A stretch of DNA of 64,000 nt from Budvicia aquatica DSM 5075 = ATCC 35567 (GCF_000427805.1 NZ_ATYS01000017.1:1-64000); one strand, 5' to 3'. Positions 2,734 to 19,507 are shown, counted from the stretch's first letter. Numbers and translations are program-made. Notes: generated by a model from the letters alone, not told the origin.

Positions 2734-3011
2734 GACTTAAATTACCTTGTGTTACTTTTATGCTGATCCTGTACTCATTATGCTCGAAAATGTCATATTT
2801 TGTTTCAAACAACGCTATTTTATTTGCCCTAAGCGATAAATACTCCCCCCTCAAAGGGCAATAAACAGACAGATTGAGCAAAAATTCATCGAACTGCTTT
2901 TTCGTCTGCGATAAATATCAAAAAATGTTCGATTGTCGCTGTCCAACAGCGAATAAACCTGATTTACTACTTCAAGCTTTGTAGCCATTAACCGTTTAAG
3001 AAAGGACTCTG

Positions 3012-3662
3012 ATGACGCTCTTTTTACAAAACTGCCTAGCATTTCCAACGATCATTTTCAGCGGACTACTGATTATAGTCTTACTGTATTGGATTTCTGC
3101 TGCCTTTGGCCTTCTCGATATTGATATTCTTAATATTGATGGCGTCGATATAAATACCGACGTTGACGGCTTTGATGCCCCCGGTGTGGCCGGATTACTC
3201 ATGAAGCTGGGGCTAGCCGGTATTCCGCTGACTATTATTATCACCCTGATAACCTTAACCGGCTGGTTTCTGACCTATTTCAGCACTCACCTAATTCTTC
3301 GCTTTATCGATACTGATATTATTCGTTATCTATTAGGAACTGCCGTATTTATTCTGGCTGGCTTTGTATCAGTTTTAGTGACCTCCATGATTCTAAAGCC
3401 CCTGCGTCCTAAATTAGCTAAGTTAAATCAAGCCAAAACGGTTAAGTCACTACTTGGCCAAATCGCTGAAGTCCGCTCTCCGATTGTTACTGAACAACGG
3501 GGAGAAGCTTTATTAGCCGATGGCGGTGCGGGTTTGATTCTTCAGGTCAGAGCATCTGAAGATGCCGGTATTGTTCGCGGAAATCGCATTGTTTTAATTG
3601 CCTACGACGCTGCAACTCACAGTTACACCGTTGTTAGTGAGGCTGAATTTAACCGACTTTAA
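3012..3662 (+). CDS. yqiJ: NfeD-like inner membrane protein (YqiJ/DUF1449 family), partner of flotillin
   Basis: Several N-terminal TM helices. The C-terminal soluble OB-fold-like segment (GEALLADGGAGLILQVRA...GNRIVLIAYD) is typical of short NfeD proteins encoded upstream of SPFH genes. Confidence 0.6.
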   Translation: MTLFLQNCLAFPTIIFSGLLIIVLLYWISAAFGLLDIDILNIDGVDINTDVDGFDAPGVAGLLMKLGLAGIPLTIIITLITLTGWFLTYFSTHLILRFIDTDIIRYLLGTAVFILAGFVSVLVTSMILKPLRPKLAKLNQAKTVKSLLGQIAEVRSPIVTEQRGEALLADGGAGLILQVRASEDAGIVRGNRIVLIAYDAATHSYTVVSEAEFNRL

Positions 3663-4021
3663 TTCATTTTTCCTTTCCCTGAATAATGGATAGGACTATC
3701 TATGGATGGTGGCTTAAGAATGAATCATGGAGGAGCTAAAATGTCCCAATTCCTTTCAAACAGCCGATGTCTGTCAGCTATCTGTTCGCGTTATACATTT
3801 GCCAAGCCCCGAATTTTCTTATATCGAACATTAACAAGAAAGCAGACCACACTTTTACAAGAAATTTTTCTATATTCGAACGTGAGTATCAGGTTTAGTT
3901 AGACACACGGTTATTAGTCATACTTTTGATCGGTAATATTATCGCATTAGCACACATTAGTTGATGATTACATAAGACTTAGCGGGACAGTAATATCCCT
4001 CAATTACACGGAGAAATACTT

Positions 4022-6262
4022 ATGTCTATGGCAGATTTAATGCCGTTCTTTACCATTGTTGGCGCGGTTATCGTGTTCATTTTGGGATTTTTTGGGTTAT
4101 TCAAAGCGTTCTATATCAAGGTGCCACAGGGAACTGCGCTGATTGTCAATGACATGTCATCTCAACCTAAAGTGCATTTTACCGGCGCACTGGTTTACCC
4201 GGTCATCTACAAAAAAGAGTTTATGCGTATCTCTTTGCTGACTCTGGAAGTTGACCGCCGGGGTAAAGATGGCCTGATCTGTAAGGATAACTTACGGGCA
4301 GATATTACCGTCGCTTTCTACCTGCGGGTTAATGAAACGACTGAAGACGTATTGAAAGTCGCGAAATCTATCGGCGTTGAGCGCGCTTCTGACCATCAGG
4401 CCGTCAGCGTATTATTCAGTGCAAAATTCTCCGAAGCGCTGAAAACCGTCGGTAAACAATTTGAGTTATCTAAGCTATTTGAAGATAGACAAAATTTCCG
4501 CGATCGCATTGTCGATGTGATTGGTAAAGATCTTAACGGCTACGCGCTGGAAGACGTTGCCATTGACTACTTAGAGCAAACGCCAAAAAGCTCGCTCGAT
4601 CCAAACAATATTTTTGATTCAGAAGGTATTCGTAAAATCACTGAAATTACAGCGATTCACAATATTGAAACCAATCAAAAAGAACGCGATCAAGAGCTGG
4701 CAATCAAGAAAAAGAACGTGGAAACACGTGAAGCCAGTCTGGCACTAGAACGCCAGCAGGCCGATGCCGAAGCCCGTCAGCAGCGTGAAATTGAAACAAT
4801 TCGCGCCCGTGAAGCGGCAGAAACGTTAAAAGTAAAAGAAGAAGAGCGCCTGAAAGCAGAACAGGCGCGAATTCAGACCCAACAAGAAATTGAAATCCGG
4901 GAAGAAAACCGCCAGCGTGAAGTTGAAGTCGCTCAGCAAAACCGTACTCGTGCAGTTTCTATTGAAATTGAAAAAGTAACCCGAGCCAGAGACCTTGAAA
5001 TAGTTTCGCGCGAGCGTGAAGTTGAACTTCAACGAATAGATAAAGAAAAAGCGCTGGAAGAAGAGCGTAAAAATATTGCTAACGTGGTACGTGAACGAGT
5101 CGCGGTCGAAAAAACCGTTGCTCAGGAAGAAGAACGTATTAAAGAAGTGCGTATGGTGTCTGAAGCCGACCGCCAGAAACAAGTCACGATTATCCAGGCG
5201 CAGGCCGATGCGGAACAAGACTTAGTCCGTCAGGTTAAACAAGCCGAAGCCGATGAGAACAGCGCTAAGCACAAAGCCTTAGAAATTAGCACCATGGCAC
5301 AGGCAGAGTTAGAAGCAGCCGCCAAGCAGGCCGAGTCGAAAAAACGCATGGCTGAAGGCGTTGAGGCTGAACAGGCCGCTCTGGGTCTGGCAGATGCGCG
5401 TGTACGTCAAGCACAGGCTGAAGCTGAAGAGAAAGAAGGTTTAGTTCAGGCTAACGTTACCGCTGAAAAACTGTTGGCAGAAGCCCGCGGTGAGCAAGAG
5501 AAAGGATTAGCCCGCGCCCGTATTCTGGAAGCTCAGGCAGCGGCAGAAGAGAAACAGGGCCTTGCCGAAGCCCGGGTTCTGGAAGAGAAGCTAACGGCTC
5601 AGGCCCGCGGTGACGAACAACAGGCACTGGCTAACGAAAAACAAGGCCTGGTTGATGCTCACGTATTAGAAGAAAAACTGGCGGCTCAGGCTCGAGGTGA
5701 AGGTCAGTTAGGTGCTGCGCAGGCGGAAGTTGTTCGTCAGCGTCTGAAAGCCGAAGCTGATGGCCTGACTGATAAGTTTACCGCTATGGGGAATCTTAAT
5801 ACCACAGCCCGCGAGCACGAAGAGTTCCGTATGCAACTGGAAAAACACTTCGAGCAAAGCATGGCCTCTATCTCTGCAAATAAAGAGATTGCCAGAGAAC
5901 AGGCAGACGTTCTGGCCGCCGCGCTCAGCAAAACGAATATCGACATTGTTGGCGGCGACGGTAGCTTCTTTAATACCTTCTCTAAAGCCCTTAGCGTCGG
6001 TAAAGCCATTAATGGCGTGGTAGAAAAGAGCCCGGTGGTACAGGATGTGGTACAGAAACTGATGGGAGCAGGTAAAGATGGCCAAAAACTGGATATCGAA
6101 GCCCTTTTACAGAATCCGGAAGTATTGGCGCTGATTCAGCAACTGACATCAGCACCGAAACCATCTGCACCACCGGCTTCGCCAGCGCTGCCACTCGCAG
6201 CACCGGTACCGCCAGCACCAGCACCAGCACCAGCACCAGCACCAAGCATGACTGAAGACTAA
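4022..6262 (+). CDS. yqiK: SPFH/band-7 flotillin-like protein (YqiK family) with extended coiled coil and C-terminal Pro-Ala repeat
   Basis: N-terminal TM segment followed by an SPFH domain. Long E/A/R/Q-rich coiled coil with internal AQARGE repeats. C-terminal (PA)n tail. At 746 aa it is longer than E. coli YqiK (553 aa). Confidence 0.8.
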   Translation: MSMADLMPFFTIVGAVIVFILGFFGLFKAFYIKVPQGTALIVNDMSSQPKVHFTGALVYPVIYKKEFMRISLLTLEVDRRGKDGLICKDNLRADITVAFYLRVNETTEDVLKVAKSIGVERASDHQAVSVLFSAKFSEALKTVGKQFELSKLFEDRQNFRDRIVDVIGKDLNGYALEDVAIDYLEQTPKSSLDPNNIFDSEGIRKITEITAIHNIETNQKERDQELAIKKKNVETREASLALERQQADAEARQQREIETIRAREAAETLKVKEEERLKAEQARIQTQQEIEIREENRQREVEVAQQNRTRAVSIEIEKVTRARDLEIVSREREVELQRIDKEKALEEERKNIANVVRERVAVEKTVAQEEERIKEVRMVSEADRQKQVTIIQAQADAEQDLVRQVKQAEADENSAKHKALEISTMAQAELEAAAKQAESKKRMAEGVEAEQAALGLADARVRQAQAEAEEKEGLVQANVTAEKLLAEARGEQEKGLARARILEAQAAAEEKQGLAEARVLEEKLTAQARGDEQQALANEKQGLVDAHVLEEKLAAQARGEGQLGAAQAEVVRQRLKAEADGLTDKFTAMGNLNTTAREHEEFRMQLEKHFEQSMASISANKEIAREQADVLAAALSKTNIDIVGGDGSFFNTFSKALSVGKAINGVVEKSPVVQDVVQKLMGAGKDGQKLDIEALLQNPEVLALIQQLTSAPKPSAPPASPALPLAAPVPPAPAPAPAPAPSMTED

Positions 6263-6270
6263 TATCCGGC

Positions 6271-6314
6271 GGGCCATCCGTGCAATTGCATTCGATGGCC
6301 CGTTTCTTTTTATT
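6271..6314 (+). terminator. Rho-independent terminator after yqiK-like gene
   Basis: Stem GGGCCATC...GATGGCCC followed by a TTTCTTTTTATTT run. Confidence 0.7.
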
Positions 6315-6452
6315 TAACACATTGTATTTACTAAGATAAGTTCACCCAGAAATAGTGCAGTATCAGGTCAACGGTAAATTTATCTTAGTTAATTTCTCTG
6401 AAAAATCATTATCAGAGTCAGCACGGCTAAAAAATATAATTTTATCAAGGAA

Positions 6453-9400
6453 ATGTTAAACGCCATGTCAGATAACCAAGACAATAATCGCGAACAGGAA
6501 TTACTGGATAACGCCGTTGCAGAAGGCGGTGCCTACGATATTTTACGTAAACGCTTATCTGAACAGGGCCAACAACTCCACGAAAAAGCGAAACAGCTAA
6601 ACGGTCGCCGTCTGGAAGAGTTCGGCAAAAGCCAGATGGACATCATTGGCCGTATCCGTATTCGTACTGAAAATAACTGCGTTGCGCGAGATATTGTCCG
6701 CGTCGGTGAGTGGCTGCTGTTTGGCTATAACGTTTTTATTGGCTTGAAAAAAGAGACGCGCATAGAAGATGTCTTCTCTCTTTATCGCCTGACTGAAAAT
6801 GAGGGCGAATACGACGTTGAACCCGTTGCTTTAACCGGCACCTTCCTGAACATCAACAGCTTTGTTCAGGACTTTAACGAGCTCTACACTTACTATAAGA
6901 ATACCCAGTTACTTCAACTTGTTGAACGTGAAGGAAAACTGCTGGCCAGTTTCCAAATCGGCGAGAGAATTACCGACGTCAGGGTTTTCCGCTGGTCAAT
7001 ATCAAGCGATAAAACTGAAATTAAATATATCGACAACCGCGGTGAACGGGATATCGCCCTGCCTCCGGCCTATGACTTTGAGTGGCATAAAACCACCCGT
7101 GAGAATGCGGTCAATGGCCGCTACTCTCATATGAATATTCTGGATACGGTATTCGTCGAAACGATTGGCGGTGACCTGACGATTAAGTGTGAAAACAACA
7201 CCGAAGACGGCTTGGGAATCTATCGGGAAGCGGTATTAGATAAAACCCAATCTCTGGATGATGCGCAGATTGAATATGCTCAGGCCGGCCCCCTGATTTT
7301 GCTAAAAATATTGCCTTATCGGGAAGAGTCCTGGCGCTATCTGGTTTATAACACCTTATCTCAAACAGCTATGCGTATTGATGCCATAGGGCTGGCCTGT
7401 ATTCAGCTACCGGAAGACCACGGCATTATCTTCCCGGGCGGTTACTATTTACAAAACGGCGAGTATAAGACCTTTGACCAGCCGATGGATGGCATGCGTT
7501 TTCGCCGAATTCGTCGTTCACCAAACGGTGAAGACGTATTATATATTTTCTATGAGCCTAACTTTGGCCGTTTAGCCCTGTTTAACTACAACATGATTGA
7601 ACGTAAGCTACACAATCCGTTGTTTGGCCATGGCTATGCCATGCTGGAAGATGGCCGAATGGTGCTGTTTGAAGGCCAATCGAATGAACCTACCCGTATT
7701 CATCCAATGCAGGTTTGGCAAACGCCCTACTACTCAGATGAATATGCCGCCCTTCAGCCGGCAAAAAATAGCTTTTTTGGCCGAATTGGTAATGCCGAAC
7801 TGGTTCGGGGAATTTCTGACCTCTACCACATCGCCAGAGAGATAGAGCAACAGCAAATATCATCTCAGCTTTATGAAAAACTCAGTCAGGATGCACGCCG
7901 ACTGATCGATATCTACTATTGGCTCAATGATGAGCAGAGCCTGCACGCATCCATCTTACTAAAAGAAATATCGCAAACCGGCGAACTGGTACTGGATGAA
8001 TACGAAAAAGTTGAGAGTATCCGCCGCCAGTCCGAACGGGCAATGAGTGAAGCAACATCTCGCCAAAAACAGCTAATTTTATCCTTATTACCGGACAGCT
8101 GGAGTAACGCTCAGCAGTTTGTTGACGCACTCAATGAGCTTAATGTCCACCGCGGGCAGCTCATCACCCTGCGGGATTATCGCTATATTGACTTAGACCG
8201 ACTCGATGAGATGGAACAACAGCTCACCGAGAGTCAACAAAGAATCTCACTCGCCACGGCTGACTTTTTGGCCAGCGATAAAGCCCTGCTGCCTTTTACT
8301 CAGCAGCTTCAGTCACTGGAAAAGCAGACTCAGGAAGCGACGAATAACGTCCAGCTTAACGAGCCCTTAGCCGGCATGGAAAAAATGTCTGCGGATTTAG
8401 ACATGCTTTCCAATCTGATGGCCTCATTGAAGTTCGAAGATACCATTCAACAAACTCATATTATTGAATCAATATCTGAGATCTATGCCAGATTAAATCA
8501 GGCCCGAGCCCGTTTACAACAGCGCCGCAAAGAGCAAGGTTCAGTAGAGTCTATTGCTCAATTCGGTGCTCAATTTAAGCTATTTAGTCAGGGGATTACT
8601 AACGCCTTAACGCTGGCCAGCGATCCTGAGCGTTGCGATGAGCAGCTTTCCCGTTTACTGGTTCAGTTAGAAGAGTTGGAAAGCCAGTTCAGCGAGCAGG
8701 AAGAGTTTTTAAACGATATTCTAAGTAAACGAGAAGAGTTACTTGAAACGTTTGAAAGCCATAAGCAATCCCTGCTGGATGAGCGCCAACGTAAATCACA
8801 AAATCTGACCGTTGCCGCTGACCGACTGCTCGACAGCCTTCAACGCAGAACCGCTCGATTTAACACCCTTGATGAGCTCAATGCCTTTTTCGCCTCTGAC
8901 CCGCTATCGATTAAAACTCGTGAAATTATTGAACGACTGCGCGGGCTAAAAGACAGCGTCAAAGCCGATGATATTGATGCCAAATTTAAAGCCGCCCGGG
9001 ATCAGGCTATCCGCAGCTTAAGGGATAAATCCGAAATATATGAAGACGGTGGCAACGTCATTAAGCTCGGCCCTCGCCATAGGTTTAGCGTTAATACACA
9101 GGAACTGGATCTCACTATTTTACCTCGCGGGGAACAGCTTTATTTGCATTTAACCGGTACCGATTATCAGGAACCCATTGAAAGTGATGAGCTGGAAACG
9201 CTAAAAGAGTATTGGCAGATCTCGATTGAATCTGAATCACCTGAAGTCTACCGGGGTGAATATCTCGCCTACTCTCTGATTTATGCCGCCAGTAAAGAGC
9301 AAGATGGTCTCACTCTGGACAAACTGATCTCCCTACTCCATGAGCCGGAAGCGCTGGAAAAAACCGTTCGTGATTTTGCCTCACCTCGTTATAAAGAGGG

Positions 9401-11402
9401 ATATGAGAAAGGCATTCACGATCACGATGCCGTTGCCATTCTACAAAAATTAATTCCCGTTGGTGAAAGCGCAGACTTACTGCGTTTTAATCCTTTAGCC
9501 AGAAGCATTGCCGTATTGTTCTGGCAGCATATCCAGAAAGAACCGCTGCCTTCCCTCTGGCCCGAGCGTGCCCGGACCAGCATGAATATTTATCAGCTAT
9601 TTCGTAGCGATGCCGGGCTACAGGATTTACAGGCTGAAATCGAAGCAGACCTAAGCCTGTTTTTGTCTCAGTTCCCCATCGCCTGTCAGCCCTATCAGCA
9701 GGCTCAGGCGGCAGAGTATCTCAGTCTGGCGCTGGGCTGTTCGCCAATTGAATTCAGCTTTAGTAAGTATGCTCGTACCCTGTTCGATAGCCTACAAACT
9801 CAGTTAGAAAAAGCCCATATGTGGGGCGACTTTAATCGTTCTCAACAAAATTTAGGCGATCGTCTGGCACAGCGCTGGCTGCTGGTAGAAAACTGGTTAA
9901 CCGGTATGTGTTCACTTCCTGAGTTTTCAGCGCTGGCAACTTATATACCCGAAGCCGTTGCACTGACACTATTAGATAATCGTGTTGCTGCGCGCTTCAG
10001 CGAAGTAGATTTACACTTTACGGTCACTCAGCTAATGGGTGAACATCCGCGAATTCAGGACAGAGCATTAACCCTGAGCCTGGATGATTATTTTGGCCGT
10101 ATGCGCAAACACCGGAAAGTGTTTATTCCAGCCTACCACCGATATCAGGAACTCAGACAAAACGTTTTAAATCAGCAGCGCAAGAACCTTCGTCTGCATG
10201 AATTTAAGGCCCGCCCGCTAAGTTCTTTCGTGCGTAATAAACTGATTAACGACGTATACCTGCCGATTATCGGTGACAACATGGCTAAACAGATTGGTGC
10301 TCTGGGTGAAGGAAAACGAACCGACCTGATGGGCCTGCTGCTAATGATTTCACCACCGGGGTACGGAAAGACCACCCTGATGGAATATATTGCTAACCGC
10401 CTGGGTCTGATTTTTATGAAAATTAATGGCCCGGCTTTAGGCCATGACGTTCTTTCATTAGATCCTGAACAGGCACCCAATGCTACCGCCCGGCAAGAGC
10501 TGGAGAAGCTGAATCTGGCGTTAGAAATGGGAAATAACGTGATGTTGTATGTGGATGATATCCAGCATACTAACCCTGAGTTCCTACAGAAATTTATTTC
10601 ACTGTGTGACGGTACCCGCCGCATTGAAGGGGTATGGAAAGGCAAAACAAAAACCTACGATATGCGCGGTAAAAAATTCTGCGTTGTCATGGCCGGTAAC
10701 CCTTATACCGAATCCGGTGACGTATTCCGCATTCCTGATATGTTAGCCAACCGAGCCGATATCTATAACTTAGGTGAAGTTCTGGGCGGCATGGAGGAAG
10801 CCTTTGCGCTGAGCTACATTGAAAATAGCCTGACCTCTAACCCGGTCTTAGCGCCGCTAGCCCTACGGGATATGAATGACCTTTATCAGTTTGTCGATAA
10901 AGCAATGGGTAAACCTTTCTCAAATAATAACTTAAGCTATAACTATAGCGACGCAGAAATCAATGAAATCGTTGCCGTGATTGAACGCATTATCATCATG
11001 CGTGATACCGTGCTGAAAGTGAACCAACAGTACATTGCCAGCGCGGCTCAGTCCGACAAGTACCGCACGGAGCCAAGCTTTAAGCTACAGGGTAGCTATC
11101 GCAATATGAATAAGCTCAGTGAGAAAATATCTTCCGTGATGAACCCGGCCGAAGTCCGGCGAATTCTCGACGATCACTACTTAGGTGAAGCCCAACTGCT
11201 AACTCACGGTGCAGAGGAAAACTTACTTAAATTAGCTGAAATTCGCGACTTGATGTCGCCAACTGAAGAAACTCGCTGGCAGCAAATAAAGCATGACTTT
11301 ATGCGCAATAAGGCACTCGGCGGTGATAATGCCGAGGTCGGAGATCGGGTGGTTGCGCAGCTTGCTGATTTAGTTGAAAGCGTTCAGGCCTTGGGTAAAT
11401 AA
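6453..11402 (+). CDS. Giant (1649 aa) soluble coiled-coil protein with C-terminal AAA+ (MoxR/AAA_5-like) ATPase domain; function unknown
   Basis: Uninterrupted 4.9 kb ORF. Walker A is PPGYGKTTL and Walker B is VMLYVDDIQ. Sensor-1-like VVMAGNP and an Arg-rich segment lie in the last ~350 aa. Long Q/E/L-rich predicted coiled-coil stretches occupy the middle. No TM segments. The start may instead be the ATG at 6465 (MSDNQ...). Confidence 0.75.
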   Translation: MLNAMSDNQDNNREQELLDNAVAEGGAYDILRKRLSEQGQQLHEKAKQLNGRRLEEFGKSQMDIIGRIRIRTENNCVARDIVRVGEWLLFGYNVFIGLKKETRIEDVFSLYRLTENEGEYDVEPVALTGTFLNINSFVQDFNELYTYYKNTQLLQLVEREGKLLASFQIGERITDVRVFRWSISSDKTEIKYIDNRGERDIALPPAYDFEWHKTTRENAVNGRYSHMNILDTVFVETIGGDLTIKCENNTEDGLGIYREAVLDKTQSLDDAQIEYAQAGPLILLKILPYREESWRYLVYNTLSQTAMRIDAIGLACIQLPEDHGIIFPGGYYLQNGEYKTFDQPMDGMRFRRIRRSPNGEDVLYIFYEPNFGRLALFNYNMIERKLHNPLFGHGYAMLEDGRMVLFEGQSNEPTRIHPMQVWQTPYYSDEYAALQPAKNSFFGRIGNAELVRGISDLYHIAREIEQQQISSQLYEKLSQDARRLIDIYYWLNDEQSLHASILLKEISQTGELVLDEYEKVESIRRQSERAMSEATSRQKQLILSLLPDSWSNAQQFVDALNELNVHRGQLITLRDYRYIDLDRLDEMEQQLTESQQRISLATADFLASDKALLPFTQQLQSLEKQTQEATNNVQLNEPLAGMEKMSADLDMLSNLMASLKFEDTIQQTHIIESISEIYARLNQARARLQQRRKEQGSVESIAQFGAQFKLFSQGITNALTLASDPERCDEQLSRLLVQLEELESQFSEQEEFLNDILSKREELLETFESHKQSLLDERQRKSQNLTVAADRLLDSLQRRTARFNTLDELNAFFASDPLSIKTREIIERLRGLKDSVKADDIDAKFKAARDQAIRSLRDKSEIYEDGGNVIKLGPRHRFSVNTQELDLTILPRGEQLYLHLTGTDYQEPIESDELETLKEYWQISIESESPEVYRGEYLAYSLIYAASKEQDGLTLDKLISLLHEPEALEKTVRDFASPRYKEGYEKGIHDHDAVAILQKLIPVGESADLLRFNPLARSIAVLFWQHIQKEPLPSLWPERARTSMNIYQLFRSDAGLQDLQAEIEADLSLFLSQFPIACQPYQQAQAAEYLSLALGCSPIEFSFSKYARTLFDSLQTQLEKAHMWGDFNRSQQNLGDRLAQRWLLVENWLTGMCSLPEFSALATYIPEAVALTLLDNRVAARFSEVDLHFTVTQLMGEHPRIQDRALTLSLDDYFGRMRKHRKVFIPAYHRYQELRQNVLNQQRKNLRLHEFKARPLSSFVRNKLINDVYLPIIGDNMAKQIGALGEGKRTDLMGLLLMISPPGYGKTTLMEYIANRLGLIFMKINGPALGHDVLSLDPEQAPNATARQELEKLNLALEMGNNVMLYVDDIQHTNPEFLQKFISLCDGTRRIEGVWKGKTKTYDMRGKKFCVVMAGNPYTESGDVFRIPDMLANRADIYNLGEVLGGMEEAFALSYIENSLTSNPVLAPLALRDMNDLYQFVDKAMGKPFSNNNLSYNYSDAEINEIVAVIERIIIMRDTVLKVNQQYIASAAQSDKYRTEPSFKLQGSYRNMNKLSEKISSVMNPAEVRRILDDHYLGEAQLLTHGAEENLLKLAEIRDLMSPTEETRWQQIKHDFMRNKALGGDNAEVGDRVVAQLADLVESVQALGK

Positions 11403-11407
11403 CCTTA

Positions 11408-11974
11408 ATGAAAGCGTGGATAAAACAACGAGTCTGGATTCTAAGCATACTGACTACCGTGCTAATTATTATACAGTGTATAAATTCAGTTACCGGTGAT
11501 GCTTTAAATAATTTCGGCATACTTCCCCGAACCACTCGGGGACTGGTCGGTATATTATGCGCCCCTTGGCTGCACAGTAACTGGGAGCATTTATTCAGTA
11601 ACTTACCAATATTACTGATCTTAAGTGCGTTATTAATTAGCCAGTCTGTCCGCGATTATATTAAGTCTAGTATTTTTATTATTCTATTCAGCGGCCTTTT
11701 GGTTTGGATTTTTGCCCGTACCGCCATTCATATTGGCGCCAGCGGATGGATTTTCGGACTATGGGCTCTACTACTAGCCAGAGCATTTACCCAGCGTAGC
11801 CTGCTGGATTTTATCTTTGCCGCAGTGGTCTTCATCTATTACGGTGGCATAACATCAGGAATGATACCGGGAACACCCGGTATCTCTTTTGAAGCGCATA
11901 TTGCAGGTGTTATCGCCGGCTTAAGTTATGCTCTGCTAACTCGGAAAAAGCCCCGGATAGAAGTAAGTCCGTAG
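11408..11974 (+). CDS. Rhomboid-family intramembrane serine protease (short 6-TM form)
   Basis: Six hydrophobic helices. Motifs present: HxxxN (HLFSN), GxSG (GASG) and AHxxG (AHIAG). The start codon lies 5 nt after the stop of the giant ATPase gene. Confidence 0.6.
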   Translation: MKAWIKQRVWILSILTTVLIIIQCINSVTGDALNNFGILPRTTRGLVGILCAPWLHSNWEHLFSNLPILLILSALLISQSVRDYIKSSIFIILFSGLLVWIFARTAIHIGASGWIFGLWALLLARAFTQRSLLDFIFAAVVFIYYGGITSGMIPGTPGISFEAHIAGVIAGLSYALLTRKKPRIEVSP

Positions 11975-12255: not shown

Positions 12256-12954
12256 ATGGATAACGTGGATATGGATAATGCTGCACTGGAAGATTATCTA
12301 AAAACAACGCTTGCTGATTTATCATTAAGTCAGTCTGAACGTAATCAACTTCGTGAGCTAGGGCAAACATTAAATCTGGAACAGTCCAGCTTTATGCGTA
12401 ATCGCGCATTTGATTTAGTGAGAGCTCAATTAACATCAGCCCCTGAGGACCTCCAGCCAACATTAAAATGGCTGGAGCTTGTGATCAAAACTCTCGATAT
12501 CAGCAGCATCCAACCCAAAATTAATTCCGCCGCCTATTTCTCCCCGGGTGAAGCCTGCCGGGAGAAAATTCGTTCAATGCTGGCTCAGAGCCGTCAGAAA
12601 GCAGACATCTGTGTTTTCACCATCGCAGATGATGTGCTTACAGAAGCGATTCTAAATGCCCACCAACGAAACGTTCAAATAAGAATAATTACTGATAACG
12701 ATAAATCAGAAGACAGCGGTAGCGATATTGAATATCTGCAAAATAAAGGTATCGCCATCGCGATGGATAATAGCCCATATCATATGCACCATAAGTTCGC
12801 GCTTTTCGATAATAGTTTTCTGCTCAACGGCAGTTTTAACTGGACGCGGAGCGCTTCTCAGCAAAATCAAGAGAACGTGTTAGTAACTGACGATATAACA
12901 TTACTCACCGCCTACCAAAAAGAATTTAATAAACTATGGACGCAGTTTAACTAA
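12256..12954 (+). CDS. Phospholipase D-family (single HKD, Nuc-like) nuclease/phosphodiesterase, cytoplasmic
   Basis: Canonical HxKx4Dx6GSxN motif (HHKFALFDNSFLLNGSFNWTRSA). No signal peptide. The gene is low-GC relative to its neighbours and has an AT-rich upstream region. Confidence 0.7.
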   Translation: MDNVDMDNAALEDYLKTTLADLSLSQSERNQLRELGQTLNLEQSSFMRNRAFDLVRAQLTSAPEDLQPTLKWLELVIKTLDISSIQPKINSAAYFSPGEACREKIRSMLAQSRQKADICVFTIADDVLTEAILNAHQRNVQIRIITDNDKSEDSGSDIEYLQNKGIAIAMDNSPYHMHHKFALFDNSFLLNGSFNWTRSASQQNQENVLVTDDITLLTAYQKEFNKLWTQFN

Positions 12955-13147
12955 TGGAAAATTTCATATTAATGCTGGCTATGGAGGTAAAAAAATCGAA
13001 GACTGCATTTAAGTTTACCGCTAAAGAAAAGGTAGATATACTCCCCGCACAAGGAAGTTTCACTCTACGCAAAGATTGCATAAAGTTCCCTCATTTCGTC
13101 GCGCCCTCTATGCAATTCCGTTACTTTCTCTACAAAACAGAATAAAT

Positions 13148-14518
13148 ATGAATAATAAAATAAAACGAATAACTCTTTGTTTTAGTATTGCGCTAACGTT
13201 GGCGGCCTGTTCTAACCCGCCTTCACGCAAAAACTATGATTATGCACTTTCGCAAGGACAGATTGAACTCGCTCAAAAAATAGCATTAGAAGAAGGCGTC
13301 GCACCGGGTACTGATACCGCGACTGAACTTCTTTGGTCTCTTGAAGCGGGTGCCGTATTACGTATGGCAGATCAGGTAGATCGCTCAACCAAAGTTCTTG
13401 ATGGCAGTGAGTTATTGATTAAAGACAACGAAACGCAAAATCTGGCGTCCTCTGGGCTTAGTCAAGCTGCATCAATGATTGTTAATGATAACGTGATGAG
13501 CTACACCCCGCGTGTATACGATCGGGTTATGGTTAACACTTATAAAGCATTAAACTTCTGGCAACAGGCTAACTTTAGCGATGCTCGCGTAGAATGGAAC
13601 CGGGTTGACGATCGTCAACGTCGTGCTGCGGAATATTTCTCTAAAGAAATTAATGCTCAAAAATCAGAAGTTAAAAGTAATAAAATCGGCGACAGTTACT
13701 CTCAGTCAATGGAAGCCCTTGAAGGATCAGGTATTGATGTATCTAAATGGGCACCTTATGATGGTTACATTAACCCGGCATCCCTGTATTTGCATGGCCT
13801 GTACTTCTTAATTAACAGCGAAAGTGCGGCTGATTACACCAAAGCAAAAGAGAGTCTAAAACGCGCTTACGCACTGACTCGCAGCAACCAAATTCGTGCT
13901 GATATTGCACTCGCTAATAAAGGCCGTACCGTTGCTCCCGGCGTTTGGGTTATTTTTGAGAATGGTCTGGCAGCCAGAAAAACTGAACGGCGTATTGATT
14001 TACCTCTGATTCTGGTTACAAAAAGCGTGGCCTATACCGGTATGGCTTTGCCCGTTCTGGAATCAGGTAGCCCGGCTTACCCTTACCTTTCGGTAAATGG
14101 CTCTCAAAAAACCGAGTCGTTTGCCAGTATGGATAAGATCATTGAGGGTGAGTTTAAGACTGAGTTTACCGGCATTTTGATCAAAGAGATCTCTCGGGCC
14201 ATCTTAAAAACCGCGGCTCAGGCGACGATGATGAATTCGGATAACAGCACGGTTAAGCTTATCGGCGCATTAACCGGTATTGCACAAGCCGTCAGTACAC
14301 AGGCTGATATTCGTAGCTGGCATGCTTTACCTTATGATTTCCAGGTTGCTTACGTTAAGTGGCCGAAAAGCGGACAAATTCAAATTAGTCCACCTGGAGG
14401 CGAAGCAATTAACGTTGATTTACCCGCAACGCCTCAACCCGTTGTCGTTTATGTGCGAGTGCTGAACGCTGGTTCTGCTCCACAAGTTAGCGTACTAACC
14501 AGTAAAAATGCGATGTAA
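13148..14518 (+). CDS. Predicted envelope lipoprotein (456 aa), function unknown
   Basis: Lipobox LTLAAC after a short basic N-terminus. The start was reassigned to the internal ATG at 13148; the ORF-track start lies further upstream. Confidence 0.55.
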   Translation: MNNKIKRITLCFSIALTLAACSNPPSRKNYDYALSQGQIELAQKIALEEGVAPGTDTATELLWSLEAGAVLRMADQVDRSTKVLDGSELLIKDNETQNLASSGLSQAASMIVNDNVMSYTPRVYDRVMVNTYKALNFWQQANFSDARVEWNRVDDRQRRAAEYFSKEINAQKSEVKSNKIGDSYSQSMEALEGSGIDVSKWAPYDGYINPASLYLHGLYFLINSESAADYTKAKESLKRAYALTRSNQIRADIALANKGRTVAPGVWVIFENGLAARKTERRIDLPLILVTKSVAYTGMALPVLESGSPAYPYLSVNGSQKTESFASMDKIIEGEFKTEFTGILIKEISRAILKTAAQATMMNSDNSTVKLIGALTGIAQAVSTQADIRSWHALPYDFQVAYVKWPKSGQIQISPPGGEAINVDLPATPQPVVVYVRVLNAGSAPQVSVLTSKNAM

Positions 14519-14575
14519 TGGACTATATCCAAAACGCATCGTGCTGAACTTTTAAACTGTATTGAGAGCTTTATA

Positions 14576-15190
14576 ATGAATATTTTTAATAGAAAAACAT
14601 TTCTTGCCGCTGCAGTAGCGCTGTCTTTAGCTGGCTGTGCACAGGAAGGTGCTTATTACGTAGATAGTTCTTCTGATAATGTTGCCGTTATGGGCCTGGA
14701 CTATAAAGACTTCGAAATGGCTGCTTCTAGCATGGTTGAAGATATGCTGAGCTCAGACTTACTGGTTCACCCACAGGGCGGCCGTTATGTTTTAACCGTT
14801 ACCGGCATCGTCAATGATACTGACCAACGTATCGATACCGACCAGTTAACTAAAAAAATCCGTACCAGCCTGTTAAATTCCGGTCGTTTTGTTGTGACTA
14901 CCGCAATTAGTGCCAACGGCCCGGAAGACGAGATGACGCGTAAAGTTCGTCAATTGCGTAACTCTAAAATGGTTAACCAAAAAACAGTTAAGAAAGATGG
15001 CCGCGTAATTGCCCCAGACTTCTCATTAACGGGTAAAATCATTCAGCAAAACCAACGTGTGAATTCAAAAACACAGCAAGTTGAATACTATTTCCAGTTA
15101 ACGTTAACCAATTTGGATGACGGTTTAGCCTATTGGGAAAAAGAGTATCCAATCATCAAGCGTGGCGACAATCGCACTGCAAGTTGGTAA
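14576..15190 (+). CDS. Predicted lipoprotein (204 aa), LpoB-like/TolB-N-like fold suggested
   Basis: Lipobox LSLAGC. The V/T-rich beta pattern (YVLTVTGIVNDTD...RFVVTT) resembles LpoB/CsgG-like modules. Confidence 0.5.
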   Translation: MNIFNRKTFLAAAVALSLAGCAQEGAYYVDSSSDNVAVMGLDYKDFEMAASSMVEDMLSSDLLVHPQGGRYVLTVTGIVNDTDQRIDTDQLTKKIRTSLLNSGRFVVTTAISANGPEDEMTRKVRQLRNSKMVNQKTVKKDGRVIAPDFSLTGKIIQQNQRVNSKTQQVEYYFQLTLTNLDDGLAYWEKEYPIIKRGDNRTASW

Positions 15191-15268
15191 GGTCGGCGTT
15201 GCACCGTATGCCTGTTTAATCAACATACGGTGCGATTTATATTATTTTTACCCATTAGGGCTTTCTTA

Positions 15269-16639
15269 ATGAAAAAATGGATATTGGTACTAGTAGGTCT
15301 TTTGGCAGTTTCACCTGCAGTGTATGCAAAAATTGAAACTGTTGATGCTCAGGGATATGGCGAGACCTACGAAAAAGCGGTTGATGCTGCTTTGGCTGAT
15401 GCCGTTCGTCAGGTTAACGGAATGACCGTAAGTACTCAGTCAGAACGCGCTGGTGATTATGTTCGGGTTAAAGACAAATCTGATGCCACAATTGAAGGAA
15501 AAGGCACCTACGTTCAAGATACTAAGAACAAAGATGACTCTTTTCTAGGCAACAAAGGTGTAGACAGTACGCTGACCGAGAATTTAGATGTGAATGTTGG
15601 TGGTAACGCTAACCGTGACTTAACCGTAAACACCGGTAAAAGTGCACAAATTAACACTCGCAGCTCCGGTACGGTAAAGGGTTATAAAGTTAAATCCCGT
15701 GACTGTGACCCAAAAGGATGTACCGTTCTCCTGAGCGTTGATATTGATAAAGTTGAGCGTAAAACCTCTCAGGCTAATTCTAAACGCGATCGCCTGGCGG
15801 TCATTACTACCGGTAACCGCAGTCGTTCAGCCTTTGCTAATCAGCTCCGCCAAGAAATCACTGACCGTATCGTTCAGTCGCAGCGTTTCACCGTATTAGA
15901 CCGCAGCACAACCAACGATAAAGCCTTCGAACAGGAAGAAGCCTTCTTGGAAGGTCGCCTGAATAATTCGGTTGATATCAAGCAAGCTGCCCTTCCGGCT
16001 GATTACCTATTGGTTATCAACGTGACGGAAGCGGGTGTTAATACTAAGACTAAAGTGACCAGCGTTGACTTAACCGGTGAATTTGACGTAACCCGCACCA
16101 GCAAAACTAAAGTGACCGTGCGTTATTCCCTGCTTGAAGCGGCCACTCACGGCATTCAATGGTCTGACTCTAGTGTATTTGAGCAAGGTGGCCGTTATTT
16201 AGAAACCGCCCGCCAACAAATCAGCGACGTTATTGCCGATAAAATTGTCAACAAACTGACTCCGGCGAAAGTCGTCAGCGTTTCTAACGGTCAAGTCATT
16301 ATTAACCGTGGTGAAGCAATGACCTACTTAGGCGACCGTTTTGATATTTATTCTCAAGGCGAGGAGCTGATAGACCCTGATACGGGTGAAACCTTAGGCG
16401 CAACAGAAGAAAAAGTAGCGACTATTGCTATCGATAGTGTTAAAGACAAAATCTCTTATGGCATTGTTGAAAGCGGAAAAATTGAGTCTATCGAAAAAGG
16501 CGCAATTGCCCGACTGGCTCCACCTCTGCCGGTAGAGAAAAAAGCGACCGATAAAAAGGTGACTAAGACCAAAACAACGCCAAAACCTAAAGCTGATGCA
16601 CAGAAGCTGGGTGATTCTGGCGGCGTTTTCCTTAAATAG
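15269..16639 (+). CDS. Secreted periplasmic/outer-membrane-associated protein with C-terminal CsgG-like domain
   Basis: Sec signal MKKWILVLVGLLAVSPAVYA. The central region has a CsgG/LPP20-like pattern (RLAVITTGN...RFTVLDRS...ADYLLVINVTEAG). K/T-rich C-terminal tail. Start taken at the internal ATG at 15269. Confidence 0.5.
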   Translation: MKKWILVLVGLLAVSPAVYAKIETVDAQGYGETYEKAVDAALADAVRQVNGMTVSTQSERAGDYVRVKDKSDATIEGKGTYVQDTKNKDDSFLGNKGVDSTLTENLDVNVGGNANRDLTVNTGKSAQINTRSSGTVKGYKVKSRDCDPKGCTVLLSVDIDKVERKTSQANSKRDRLAVITTGNRSRSAFANQLRQEITDRIVQSQRFTVLDRSTTNDKAFEQEEAFLEGRLNNSVDIKQAALPADYLLVINVTEAGVNTKTKVTSVDLTGEFDVTRTSKTKVTVRYSLLEAATHGIQWSDSSVFEQGGRYLETARQQISDVIADKIVNKLTPAKVVSVSNGQVIINRGEAMTYLGDRFDIYSQGEELIDPDTGETLGATEEKVATIAIDSVKDKISYGIVESGKIESIEKGAIARLAPPLPVEKKATDKKVTKTKTTPKPKADAQKLGDSGGVFLK

Positions 16640-16932: not shown

Positions 16933-18099
16933 ATGGAGCAAGATATGTTTAATTTTGATTACTATAATCCAACCCGCATTATCTTTGGCAGCCATCGAAT
17001 TAAAGATCTCGATGCACAAATTCCGGCCAATGCCCGAGTTCTTGTCACCTATGGCGGCGGAAGTGCTAAAAAGCACGGCACAATGGATGAAGTTATTCAG
17101 GCTTTAGGTTCACGTAAATATATCGAATTTGGCGGTATAGAGCCGAACCCTCACTATGACACCTTGATGAAGGCAGTCGAGATCGTTAAAACCGAGCAGA
17201 TAGATTATCTGATTGCCGTTGGTGGCGGTTCCGTCATTGATGGTACGAAATTTATTGCTGCCGCGGTGTATTTCGAAGGCGACGCTTGGCAAGCTTGGAT
17301 TGGCAGTACGCCAATTAAAAAAGCCTTACCGGTAGGTTGTGTACTGACCTTGCCAGCAACCGGTTCTGAAATGAACGGAACTTCGGTTATCTCTAATACC
17401 GCATTGAATGCCAAGCTCAGTAACAAGAACCCGCTGCTATTCCCTCAGTTTGCTATATTAGATCCAAGAAAGTCATATACTTTACCGCCACATCAAACGG
17501 CTAATGGCGTTGTCGATGCTTTTATCCATGTGGTAGAACAATATCTGACTTATCCGGTTTACGGTAAAGTTCAAGACCGATACGCCGAAGGCCTAATGCT
17601 CACATTGATCGAAGAAGGCCCTAAAGCGCTGGTAGAGCCTGAAAATTATGACGTCAGAGCAGCTATCATGTGGAGTGCCACTCAGGCCCTCAATGGCCTT
17701 ATAGGCGTCGGTGTTCCGCAAGACTGGTCTTCTCATCGGATGGGATATTACTTCACTATTTACCATGGATTAGACCATGCCCAAACGTTGGCTATTATTC
17801 TGCCGGCAGTTCTTGAAATTCAAAAAGAGTCTAAGCGTCTGAAGCTTCTTCAATATGCAGAACGTGTCTGGGGCTTAACTGATGGTAGCGAAGAACAGCG
17901 AATTAACCATGCAATAAGCCTGACCAGAACGTTTTTTGAGGATATGGGTATTCCGACTTACCTCAGGGCATATGGTATTCCTGAATCATCTATTGATGAA
18001 GCCATTATCTATTTAGAGAAATTTAATTTGTTACCATTAGGTGAACATAAAGATATAGGTGTAATAGAAGTACGAAAAATTCTAAGTTTGAGTTACTAA
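16933..18099 (+). CDS. yqhD: NADPH-dependent aldehyde reductase, Fe-containing alcohol dehydrogenase family (YqhD)
   Basis: Near-collinear with E. coli YqhD (GGGSV.DGTKFIAAA, VLTLPATGSE, HGLDHAQTLAI). The start could instead be the ATG at 16945 (MFNFDY). Confidence 0.85.
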   Translation: MEQDMFNFDYYNPTRIIFGSHRIKDLDAQIPANARVLVTYGGGSAKKHGTMDEVIQALGSRKYIEFGGIEPNPHYDTLMKAVEIVKTEQIDYLIAVGGGSVIDGTKFIAAAVYFEGDAWQAWIGSTPIKKALPVGCVLTLPATGSEMNGTSVISNTALNAKLSNKNPLLFPQFAILDPRKSYTLPPHQTANGVVDAFIHVVEQYLTYPVYGKVQDRYAEGLMLTLIEEGPKALVEPENYDVRAAIMWSATQALNGLIGVGVPQDWSSHRMGYYFTIYHGLDHAQTLAIILPAVLEIQKESKRLKLLQYAERVWGLTDGSEEQRINHAISLTRTFFEDMGIPTYLRAYGIPESSIDEAIIYLEKFNLLPLGEHKDIGVIEVRKILSLSY

Positions 18100-18308
18100 A
18101 ATCAGCCGACAGGACAGAATAACGTTATAAAGACTTGTTCATTTCCTGTCGGCATACTATGATAGTGTTATCACTCGGCTATGCTACTGCTCACAACCCT
18201 GTGTTATATAATCTCCAGATATATTACCACCAGCTGTAACATTTAATTAATGATGTACATGGCCGATCTGGATTCACCTTCCAATTAAATCTATTAAAGT
18301 AAAAAATA

Positions 18309-18521
18309 ATGAGCGATATTGATTATTTAATGATGTTCCGCAAATGTTCAAATCATGACAGTTTAGAGCGCCTATATGACAAACTAAACTATTCTTTAGT
18401 TGATAATAATATTCTTGCCAATATGTATCGTGCTGCCGACCATCGGCGTGCAGAGCTAGTCGCAGGTAAACTGTTCGACTTAGGTAAAGTTCCTAAATCT
18501 CTTTGGTCTCAGGTTAAATAG
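18309..18521 (+). CDS. cnu: Hha/YmoA-family nucleoid-associated protein, closest to Cnu/YdgT
   Basis: DYLMMFRKC...[29 protein letters not shown] matches the YdgT/Cnu signature. No tomB-like gene lies upstream. Confidence 0.75.
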
Positions 18522-19478
18522 TTCTATATTTACAACTAAAGCTAATGATAAACACATTGTGTTTACCCTTTGTTTTTAGATAGTTATATAAAACCTGATG
18601 CTAAACTGTAAACATTAGACACACTGTCATGTGGTTTTTTACTAATTTGCCCTGCTGTTTGTTTTTTATGCCATTTACTTCATATGTATCATCGTTATTT
18701 AGATATGACTCTCATGTAATAATAGCTATCTCTTAAGGTAGCTATTAGCATTGAGAAACAAATAAAATATTTCTTAATATACCCACTTTGATTTTACGTA
18801 TATTTAATACGGGGTATAAAATTAATCTAAAATTGCACCAAATCAAAGAATAAGGGACTTAATCTGATAAGCACATCAAACGGTCCAACCAAATAAATTA
18901 ACAATTAAAACCAATAAAAAATGAGCTAATAAAGTTTTTAAGCGCAGTATATAGTCAATAATATGAAACAAACTATTCATATATAGTTTGTTTCCACTTG
19001 CGTTTTGTCCAGCTAACACTAACACGCTCTGTTTATCATATATAAACAATGCCGGTTCCGGTTCAGCCCCGAATCCTTGAGTCTGATTATGACAAAATGT
19101 TAATAATTATTTATTTCCATATTTTTCAATAAGTAATCTAATATCATTTAATACCGCAAGGTCCAATTTCTTCAATCTGATTAAAACACAAAAACCTAAC
19201 CACCTTGTTAACCCTTAAAATCTTTAATATTCATCAATATGATGGCTGCTGTCGCAAATTTTATAGATTCAGTGATATTACTCAGCTAGACGCTGCCAGC
19301 AGGAACATCTGAGCAGTTGGCTGGTTAAAAATCGACTCTGATGGCTAGATAAACAAACACGCCCCTACTCTTAACTAAGATCGCCCCAACAGAGCAGACA
19401 AGTAACCCCAAACGCAGGTTAACAACACACCAATTTGCTCAGTTGGTGAACACTCAGGTTAAAGATAACAATTTAGCG

Positions 19479-19507
19479 TTGACAGTCTATGAGTAGCTAG
19501 ATATGAT
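19479..19507 (+). promoter_or_regulatory. Sigma70 promoter of tRNA-Asn copy 1 (TTGACA, 17 nt spacer, TATGAT, GC-rich discriminator)
   Basis: The -35 TTGACA is at 19479-19484 and the -10 TATGAT at 19502-19507. A GC-rich stretch (gattcgcccc) follows before the tRNA. Confidence 0.6.

Follow-up and report, generated by a model that had tools for sequence, protein, structure and literature searches.

The closest described relative of the locus analysed here is the bacABCDEF operon of Pseudomonas aeruginosa (PA3732-PA3727; PA14_16140-16200), whose genes are co-transcribed as judged by reverse transcription PCR and all of whose products increase 6- to 13-fold when bacA is mutated (PMC10948618). This operon responds to stress, biofilm growth and phage infection, PA3728-PA3732 being induced in phage-infected cells (PMC12041424), and its genes specify, in order, DUF2170, PspA, proteins of 213, 688 and 1746 amino acids, and a PLD-family protein. 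A wider class of such neighbourhoods was described by Ravi et al. in 2024, in which a CesT/Tir(DUF2170)-PspA pair is accompanied by a flotillin with transmembrane (TM) and band-7 regions, a "novel AAA+ ATPase", a YqiJ/YuaF-like protein with three TM segments and, sometimes, a PLD protein, and of which abbreviated versions without PspA exist (PMC11237479). Here, we describe a related locus in a 64-kb stretch of DNA (the window) from Budvicia aquatica DSM 5075 = ATCC 35567, in which genes for a YqiJ-like protein, a flotillin, a giant ATPase, a small rhomboid protease and a PLD-family hydrolase follow one another on the + strand. With somewhat more confidence than doubt, we read it as a PspA-less, "abbreviated" bac/Psp-associated flotillin operon with an added rhomboid, which would serve the ATP-driven remodelling of a flotillin scaffold in envelope stress. 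The core of the system is already known, and what appears to be new is one small rhomboid family that recurs inside such clusters.

Four of these genes are orthologous to bacC-bacD-bacE-bacF (PA3730-PA3727) and lie in the same order on the same strand, so we use the bac names below. The Budvicia BacE is 67% identical to its P. aeruginosa counterpart (PA3728), BacC is 47% identical to the protein at the equivalent position, and BacF occupies the place of PA3727. The Budvicia locus differs from the P. aeruginosa operon in having neither bacA (DUF2170) nor bacB (PspA), in the absence of a sigma-54 site of the kind proposed for bacA, and in the presence of a hairpin after bacD and of a rhomboid gene between bacE and bacF, where P. 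aeruginosa has none. With its flotillin, YqiJ/YuaF-like TM protein, AAA+ ATPase and HKD hydrolase, it corresponds to the abbreviated operon class of Ravi et al. The first-pass annotation of this DNA had listed four + strand genes, all of whose open reading frames we confirm, and had left out a conserved fifth member, the PLD gene at 12256-12954. It had also known of no characterised system of this composition, a claim that does not survive comparison with the two published descriptions (PMC11237479, PMC10948618), from which the rhomboid alone is missing.

The first gene (bacC; 3012..3662) encodes a protein of 216 amino acids with three TM segments in a hydropathy scan (residues 14-32, 62-80 and 110-128) and a conserved C-terminal soluble domain. 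Searches of Pfam and NCBIfam, BLASTP (including a direct comparison to E. coli YqiJ) and sequence and profile searches of the PDB gave nothing for this protein beyond faint matches to Pfam YqiJ_N (expectation value, E, of 0.15). A profile built from six BacC sequences aligned weakly with YqiJ (hhalign E 9e-4, probability 23%), and a profile of 80 orthologues proved colinear with E. coli YqiJ at a probability of 93% and E of 2.5e-7. The earlier designation as an NfeD-like YqiJ is therefore supported at the profile level only, that of a putative remote homologue of YqiJ and the short NfeD proteins. The second gene (bacD; 4022..6262) encodes a flotillin of the YqiK family (746 amino acids), as had been proposed: BLASTP aligns it with E. 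coli YqiK at 30% identity over 444 amino acids (E 7e-50), and its N-terminal 213 residues, when scanned alone, contain an SPFH/Band_7 domain at residues 33-180 (E 6.7e-7). The full-length protein gave no Pfam match, probably because of its biased coiled-coil composition, and a search against PDB sequences returned nothing useful. A single N-terminal TM segment (residues 9-27 in the hydropathy scan) precedes the Band_7 domain, which is followed by long Glu/Ala-rich helical repeats and a Pro/Ala-rich tail.

The third gene (bacE; 6453..11402) encodes a giant soluble ATPase of 1649 amino acids. A start at the ATG at 6465, giving a product of 1645 amino acids, is likely, because a conserved Shine-Dalgarno AAGGAA lies at 6448-6453 and the homologues are 1645 amino acids long. 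DUF3686 occupies residues 42-489 (nucleotides 6576-7919, E 1.6e-202), DUF7902 residues 610-694 (nucleotides 8280-8534), and the sole AAA+ module with its lid residues about 1290-1649 (nucleotides about 10320-11399). The hydropathy scan found no TM segment, and Pfam no peptidase domain, that of the M41 proteases included. Homologues are 88-89% identical in Limnobaculum and Pragia and 67% identical in Pseudomonas, and occur also in Xenorhabdus, Providencia, Proteus and Gilliamella. The family comprises 1,382 clusters at 50% identity, with members in P. aeruginosa, Proteus, Providencia and Stenotrophomonas among others, and the P. aeruginosa copies form one 90% cluster of 3,222 member sequences.

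As the test of conserved co-localisation that the first-pass annotation had named, we surveyed 80 loci, one genome per species, whose ATPases are 46-89% identical to that of Budvicia, searching their open reading frames with iterated hidden Markov models seeded from the window and from Pfam-annotated loci. Seven loci were uninformative, their contigs ending in or just before the flotillin gene; all of the remaining 73 carry the YqiJ-like, flotillin and ATPase genes in that order. The hosts span the Gamma- and Betaproteobacteria, Myxococcota and Acidobacteriota and include one metagenome-assembled genome of the Clostridia. In E. coli, neither the giant ATPase nor the rhomboid nor the PLD gene adjoins yqiJK. 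The dependence is thus one-way, in that the ATPase requires the flotillin pair, which itself can do without the ATPase, and the clustering of ATPase and flotillin is supported as functional rather than accidental. The core trio is joined less regularly by other genes: DUF2170-PspA lies upstream in 42/80 loci, a PLD gene downstream in 18/80, and a small rhomboid gene directly 3' of the ATPase gene and on the same strand in 13/80, frequently with a 4-bp overlap at the ATPase stop codon. The order ATPase-rhomboid-PLD recurs in 11/87 loci of the genome survey. Rhomboid-bearing loci were found in Limnobaculum, Xenorhabdus, Providencia, several pseudomonad genera, Entomomonas, Oleiphilaceae and Cellvibrionaceae, whereas upwards of 80% of the ATPase loci, that of P. 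aeruginosa among them, have no rhomboid.

A census of downstream genes in loci without rhomboid and PLD revealed no further conserved member; the genes 3' of the ATPase are mixed there (MscS/MscK in three loci, TelA in two, an alpha/beta hydrolase in two and an M50B peptidase in one). The mechanosensitive-channel, TelA and M50B-like intramembrane peptidase neighbours (L041:15524-19009, L042:15569-19012 and others) are other membrane-stress proteins. LemA genes were seen in two settings: in Xenorhabdus, the stretch that separates the giant ATPase from the rhomboid contains two of them, each followed by an unannotated gene (L006:14976-17885), and in Proteus mirabilis a LemA gene and a gene of 392 amino acids lie divergently upstream of the operon (L005:4747-6518).

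By sequence, BacE matched solved structures only in the P-loop region of p97 and Rix7, and its N-terminal DUF3686 region gave nothing useful against PDB sequences, a part of the protein for which Ravi et al. state a beta-propeller fold (PMC11237479). Structures were predicted with AlphaFold2 (AF2). A model of residues 1151-1649 from a low-diversity alignment (identity at least 71%) reached a predicted local distance difference test score (pLDDT) of 58 and was discarded; a model of residues 1235-1649 from a diverse alignment reached a pLDDT of 83 and a predicted template modelling score of 0.73. Ranked against solved AAA+ structures, the latter scored highest with the MoxR-type CbbQ (17.4), followed by NorQ (15.6), Midasin (14.4), dynein (13.8), ClpA and ClpB (13.0-13.1), p97, NVL and Rix7 (12.3-12.5), FtsH (11.4) and Vps4 (10.9-11.5). 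Features of the sequence are in line with this order, namely a beta-hairpin ahead of sensor 1 and the motif GNPYTESG...IPDMLANR, which resembles the MoxR signature NPxExEG...P.aqlDRF. The Walker A motif reads SPPGYGKT, and an aromatic-hydrophobic-Gly pore loop is absent from the pore-loop position, which reads GPALGHDV. The motor is thus predicted to be MoxR/CbbQ-like (AAA_5 group), not FtsH/Cdc48-like; the published description of this protein is of just a novel AAA+ ATPase. Enzymes of the MoxR type remodel or mature complexes and do not thread substrates into proteases, and they usually come with a VWA partner gene. No match to such a partner was found among the locus genes scanned or the recurrent downstream genes. 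BacE further differs from CbbQ, NorQ and RavA in its size, its 1,649 amino acids including an N-terminal extension of 1,250, compared to 254-267 residues in the solved CbbQ and NorQ chains, and in a Walker B motif that has DD instead of DE.

Five nucleotides after the ATPase stop codon begins the gene of a small rhomboid intramembrane serine protease (11408..11974; 188 amino acids), which matches PF01694 at E 3.4e-20 and 73.1 bits, compared to a gathering cutoff of 22.6. A crude hydropathy scan places four segments above threshold, and the length fits a minimal core of six TM segments. The catalytic set is intact (His and Asn of TM2, the GxSG serine and the TM6 histidine), and H56, H61, N65, G110, S112, G113 and H164 do not vary across 15 operon-linked orthologues. 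A rhombosortase assignment (TIGR03902) was rejected, as the score of 38.4 bits falls below the NCBIfam cutoff of 84. The ATPase-linked rhomboids form one tight subfamily of 182-194 amino acids, and their pairwise identities correlate with those of the accompanying ATPases (r = 0.85).

The reverse survey started from this rhomboid subfamily, with which metagenomes were scanned to give 80 loci. The ATPase gene lies directly upstream of the rhomboid in 32/80 of them, and in 25 of those 32 a PLD gene follows. In a further 21/80, the gene pair directly upstream is DUF2170-PspA, with no flotillin or ATPase gene within 7 kb, so that 53/80 metagenomic copies lie next to BacE or DUF2170-PspA; the remaining loci are short contigs or unrelated contexts (groEL, pseudouridine synthase, ROK kinase). 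One of the 21, checked against Pfam, has the order DUF2170-PspA-rhomboid-K+ channel-DUF2491-DUF350-DUF1190-GSP_synth. This arrangement resembles yjfIJKLMC of E. coli and, apart from the inserted rhomboid, agrees with the second class of CesT/Tir-PspA operons described by Ravi et al. Rhomboids directly after DUF2170-PspA, in operons with DUF2491, DUF350, DUF1190 and GSP_synth and a following K+ channel gene, were seen at L127:5577-11677 and at L130, L134, L136, L137, L141, L149 and other loci, and in a genome of the Pseudomonadales a rhomboid of the subfamily lies divergently upstream of yjfI, not 3' of an ATPase gene (L034:5173-5721, - strand). Since 21/80 copies follow DUF2170-PspA without flotillin or ATPase nearby, the rhomboid is not specific to the ATPase, and is an optional but non-random accessory of the YjfJ/PspA network generally. 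The word "rhomboid" is absent from the main text of Ravi et al. 2024 (PMC11237479) and of Popp et al. 2022, and, of the papers searched, the only ones in which rhomboid, PspA and flotillin appear together deal with cancer and Wnt signalling, not with bacteria.

These data bear directly on the possibility that the rhomboid is a passenger gene with no functional tie to its neighbours. Its facultative occurrence and the roughly one quarter of metagenomic loci with unrelated contexts are what such a gene would show, but its position and strand stay constant, often with an overlap of the ATPase stop codon, in Budviciaceae, Morganellaceae, several genera of pseudomonads, Oleiphilaceae and Cellvibrionaceae, two thirds of the metagenomic copies stand beside BacE or DUF2170-PspA, and the identities of rhomboid and ATPase co-vary. 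We strongly disfavour the passenger explanation and regard it as extremely improbable.

The first-pass annotation had suggested, by analogy, a split version of the FtsH system, with a soluble AAA+ engine and a rhomboid at work inside a flotillin microdomain. In such a split FtsH-like degradation machine, the AAA+ unfoldase would extract or unfold membrane proteins there and pass them on to the rhomboid. The tight linkage of the two genes, which here stand 5 nt apart and elsewhere overlap by 4 bp, speaks for this arrangement, as do the precedents of HflK/C-FtsH, an SPFH assembly with an AAA protease, and of SLP2-PARL-YME1L; moreover, the Bacillus subtilis rhomboid YqgP reportedly acts as an FtsH adaptor. 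A fixed three-part machine is, however, difficult to square with a rhomboid that most ATPase loci, that of P. aeruginosa among them, do without, and that follows DUF2170-PspA where no ATPase is encoded within 7 kb. Nor does the predicted MoxR/CbbQ-like fold of BacE, which has neither a membrane anchor nor a protease domain nor an aromatic pore loop, suit an unfoldase that feeds a protease, and rhomboids need no ATP or unfoldase. The analogy with HflK/C-FtsH is therefore a loose one, because the rhomboid is optional and also occurs in PspA operons without flotillin and ATPase, and we consider the split machine quite unlikely. Of the earlier interpretation as a whole, the real and conserved linkage of the genes stands, whereas the novelty of the core, the FtsH-like unfoldase and a rhomboid dedicated to the ATPase do not.

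The recurrence of DUF2170-PspA immediately upstream of the core trio (42 of the 80 loci) raises another alternative, namely that BacE is a Vps4-like recycler which takes apart the ESCRT-III-like polymers of PspA, the flotillin being only a recruiting platform. ESCRT-like roles have been proposed for the AAA+ partners of PspA by Ravi et al. (PMC11237479), and the rhomboid is linked to PspA operons as well. We nevertheless consider this explanation unlikely. A bolder view of the rhomboid itself is that the subfamily is a protease dedicated to envelope-stress systems of the YjfJ/PspA type and forms, with a flotillin cage, the giant MoxR-like remodelling ATPase and the cardiolipin-hydrolase-like enzyme, a bacterial membrane-repair hub. 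Such a hub would parallel in function the mitochondrial SLP2/STOML2-PARL-YME1L (SPY) complex, and the rhomboid would cleave a stress-exposed membrane substrate inside a flotillin-delimited patch. We offer this view tentatively and hold it to be rather unlikely.

The fifth gene (bacF; 12256..12954) encodes a PLD-family hydrolase of 232 amino acids with a PLDc_2 domain (E 3.5e-29) and a single HKD motif. Neither a TM segment nor a signal peptide is present, and the protein should be cytoplasmic. In a search of PDB sequences, its closest solved relatives are mitochondrial cardiolipin hydrolases (PLD6/Zucchini; E 1.3e-29), the match to the bacterial Nuc endonuclease being far weaker (E 2.2e-10); lipid and nucleic acid are both candidate targets. 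The hydrolase also enters an explanation of a different kind, in which an McrB/MoxR-like "DNA repair ATPase", the name that NCBI gives to the BacE homologues, and an HKD nuclease act on DNA or RNA in an anti-phage system, the membrane proteins being sensors. A literature search for DUF3686 found no papers, and therefore no published basis for that name was found. PADLOC detects no defence system at the locus: BacF gave only generic PLD-domain matches, and the other components a single P-loop match to mad8 (E 3e-4). BacF is far nearer to the cardiolipin hydrolase than to Nuc, BacE remains 67% identical between Enterobacterales and Pseudomonas over 1,650 amino acids, which seems unlike variable defence genes, and the association with PspA and flotillin genes suggests a role at the membrane. 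An anti-phage or nucleic-acid role is, in our judgement, very unlikely.

The flotillin unit had been said to end in a terminator, and a hairpin with a U-run 3' of its stem is indeed found at about 6268-6317 on the + strand, directly after bacD. Its fold energy is -24.2 kcal/mol (z -3.9), none of 200 shuffled sequences was as stable, and hairpins of differing sequence occupy the equivalent position in Limnobaculum, Xenorhabdus, Providencia and Proteus. A consensus terminator scanner failed to flag it, and bacD and bacE of P. aeruginosa are co-transcribed (PMC10948618). The hairpin is probably an attenuator that lowers the expression of the ATPase relative to the scaffold. The gap between bacC and bacD (3663-4021) is, at 359 nt, unusually long (Limnobaculum has about 200 nt here, and most other loci have tens of nucleotides), and contains two weak sigma-70-like matches (3714-3742 and 3915-3942).

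On the basis of these findings, the reading that we favour, an abbreviated flotillin operon with an added rhomboid, can be drawn as the following model. At the inner membrane, on its cytoplasmic side, BacC and BacD would make up a flotillin scaffold, onto which the soluble BacE would dock via its large N-terminal region. Under envelope stress, the MoxR-like ring of BacE would then spend ATP on putting together, taking apart or otherwise remodelling the scaffold, or the clients that the scaffold holds, and BacE would work alongside PspA where a PspA polymer is encoded. The rhomboid and the cardiolipin-hydrolase-like PLD protein would be optional effectors in the same membrane patch, the former acting on membrane proteins and the latter on lipid. 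The hairpin after bacD would hold the ATPase, rhomboid and PLD protein at low levels and leave the scaffold plentiful.

Several observations weigh against this model. No match to DUF2170 or PspA (yjfI/pspA) was found anywhere in the window, and a sigma-54 site (TGGCAC-N5-TTGCW, up to two mismatches) is absent from 2734-3011, 3663-4021 and 6263-6452; a coupling to PspA in Budvicia aquatica is therefore assumed. The assignment of the BacE fold depends on a predicted model, and its Walker B motif, DDIQH (D1368 and D1369, invariant in 21 diverse homologues), is not the canonical hhhhDE, because of which hydrolysis may be slow or regulatory. Relatives of PLD6/Zucchini can be nucleases and not lipases. 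A search for substrate signatures found no difference in the N-terminal anchor of BacD between loci with and without the rhomboid and so lends no support to BacD as the rhomboid substrate. Finally, a single deletion of paFlo3 (= bacD) in P. aeruginosa PA14 reduces biofilm by only about 20% (PMC13086221).

The genes 5' of the operon encode an amidase and an NAD-binding protein, and a megablast search against plasmids gave zero matches. On the 3' side of the PLD gene (13076-16639) lie a lipoprotein-like gene of 480 amino acids, lpoB and a gene of 469 amino acids, an order that is repeated in Limnobaculum (L004); in other lineages these genes do not belong to the cluster. Just past a Fe-ADH-like gene, the G+C content falls to 0.31-0.33 at 18000-19500, compared to about 0.45 in the flanks; the equivalent in Limnobaculum is an hha-like small gene, and the segment may be horizontally acquired or H-NS-type AT-rich DNA.

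The giant DUF3686 ATPase is widespread, yet without an experimental function, and very few bacterial rhomboids have a known physiological role. Considering that (i) the ATPase is obligately tied to the flotillin pair, (ii) its motor is predicted to be MoxR-like, and (iii) the rhomboid is recurrent in PspA-type operons, both problems become experimentally tractable: the ATPase is a candidate remodeller of bacterial flotillin assemblies, and the operons are a place in which to seek a rhomboid substrate.

Set beside other known systems, the locus has partial counterparts in several. As in E. coli yqiJ-yqiK and in the NfeD-SPFH pairs YbbJ-QmcA and YuaF-FloT, a flotillin homologue is preceded by a putative remote YqiJ homologue, although BacC is too diverged for the Pfam models of NfeD or YqiJ. 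With HflK/C-FtsH it shares the pairing of an SPFH assembly and an AAA+ enzyme, but BacE lacks both TM segments and an M41 protease domain and is predicted to belong to another AAA+ group. The nearest compositional precedent would be the mitochondrial SPY complex (PMC10818064) together with MitoPLD, for which the parts list is the same (SPFH scaffold, rhomboid, AAA+ enzyme and HKD protein of the cardiolipin-hydrolase type). This likeness is one of analogy and not of motor homology, as YME1L is a classical AAA protease anchored in the membrane, whereas BacE is soluble, appears MoxR-like and lacks a protease domain, and the bacterial components are connected through gene linkage. If it holds, the parallel between the Budvicia-type operons and the mitochondrial combination of SPFH protein, rhomboid and AAA enzyme would indicate a general principle in the organisation of membrane quality control.

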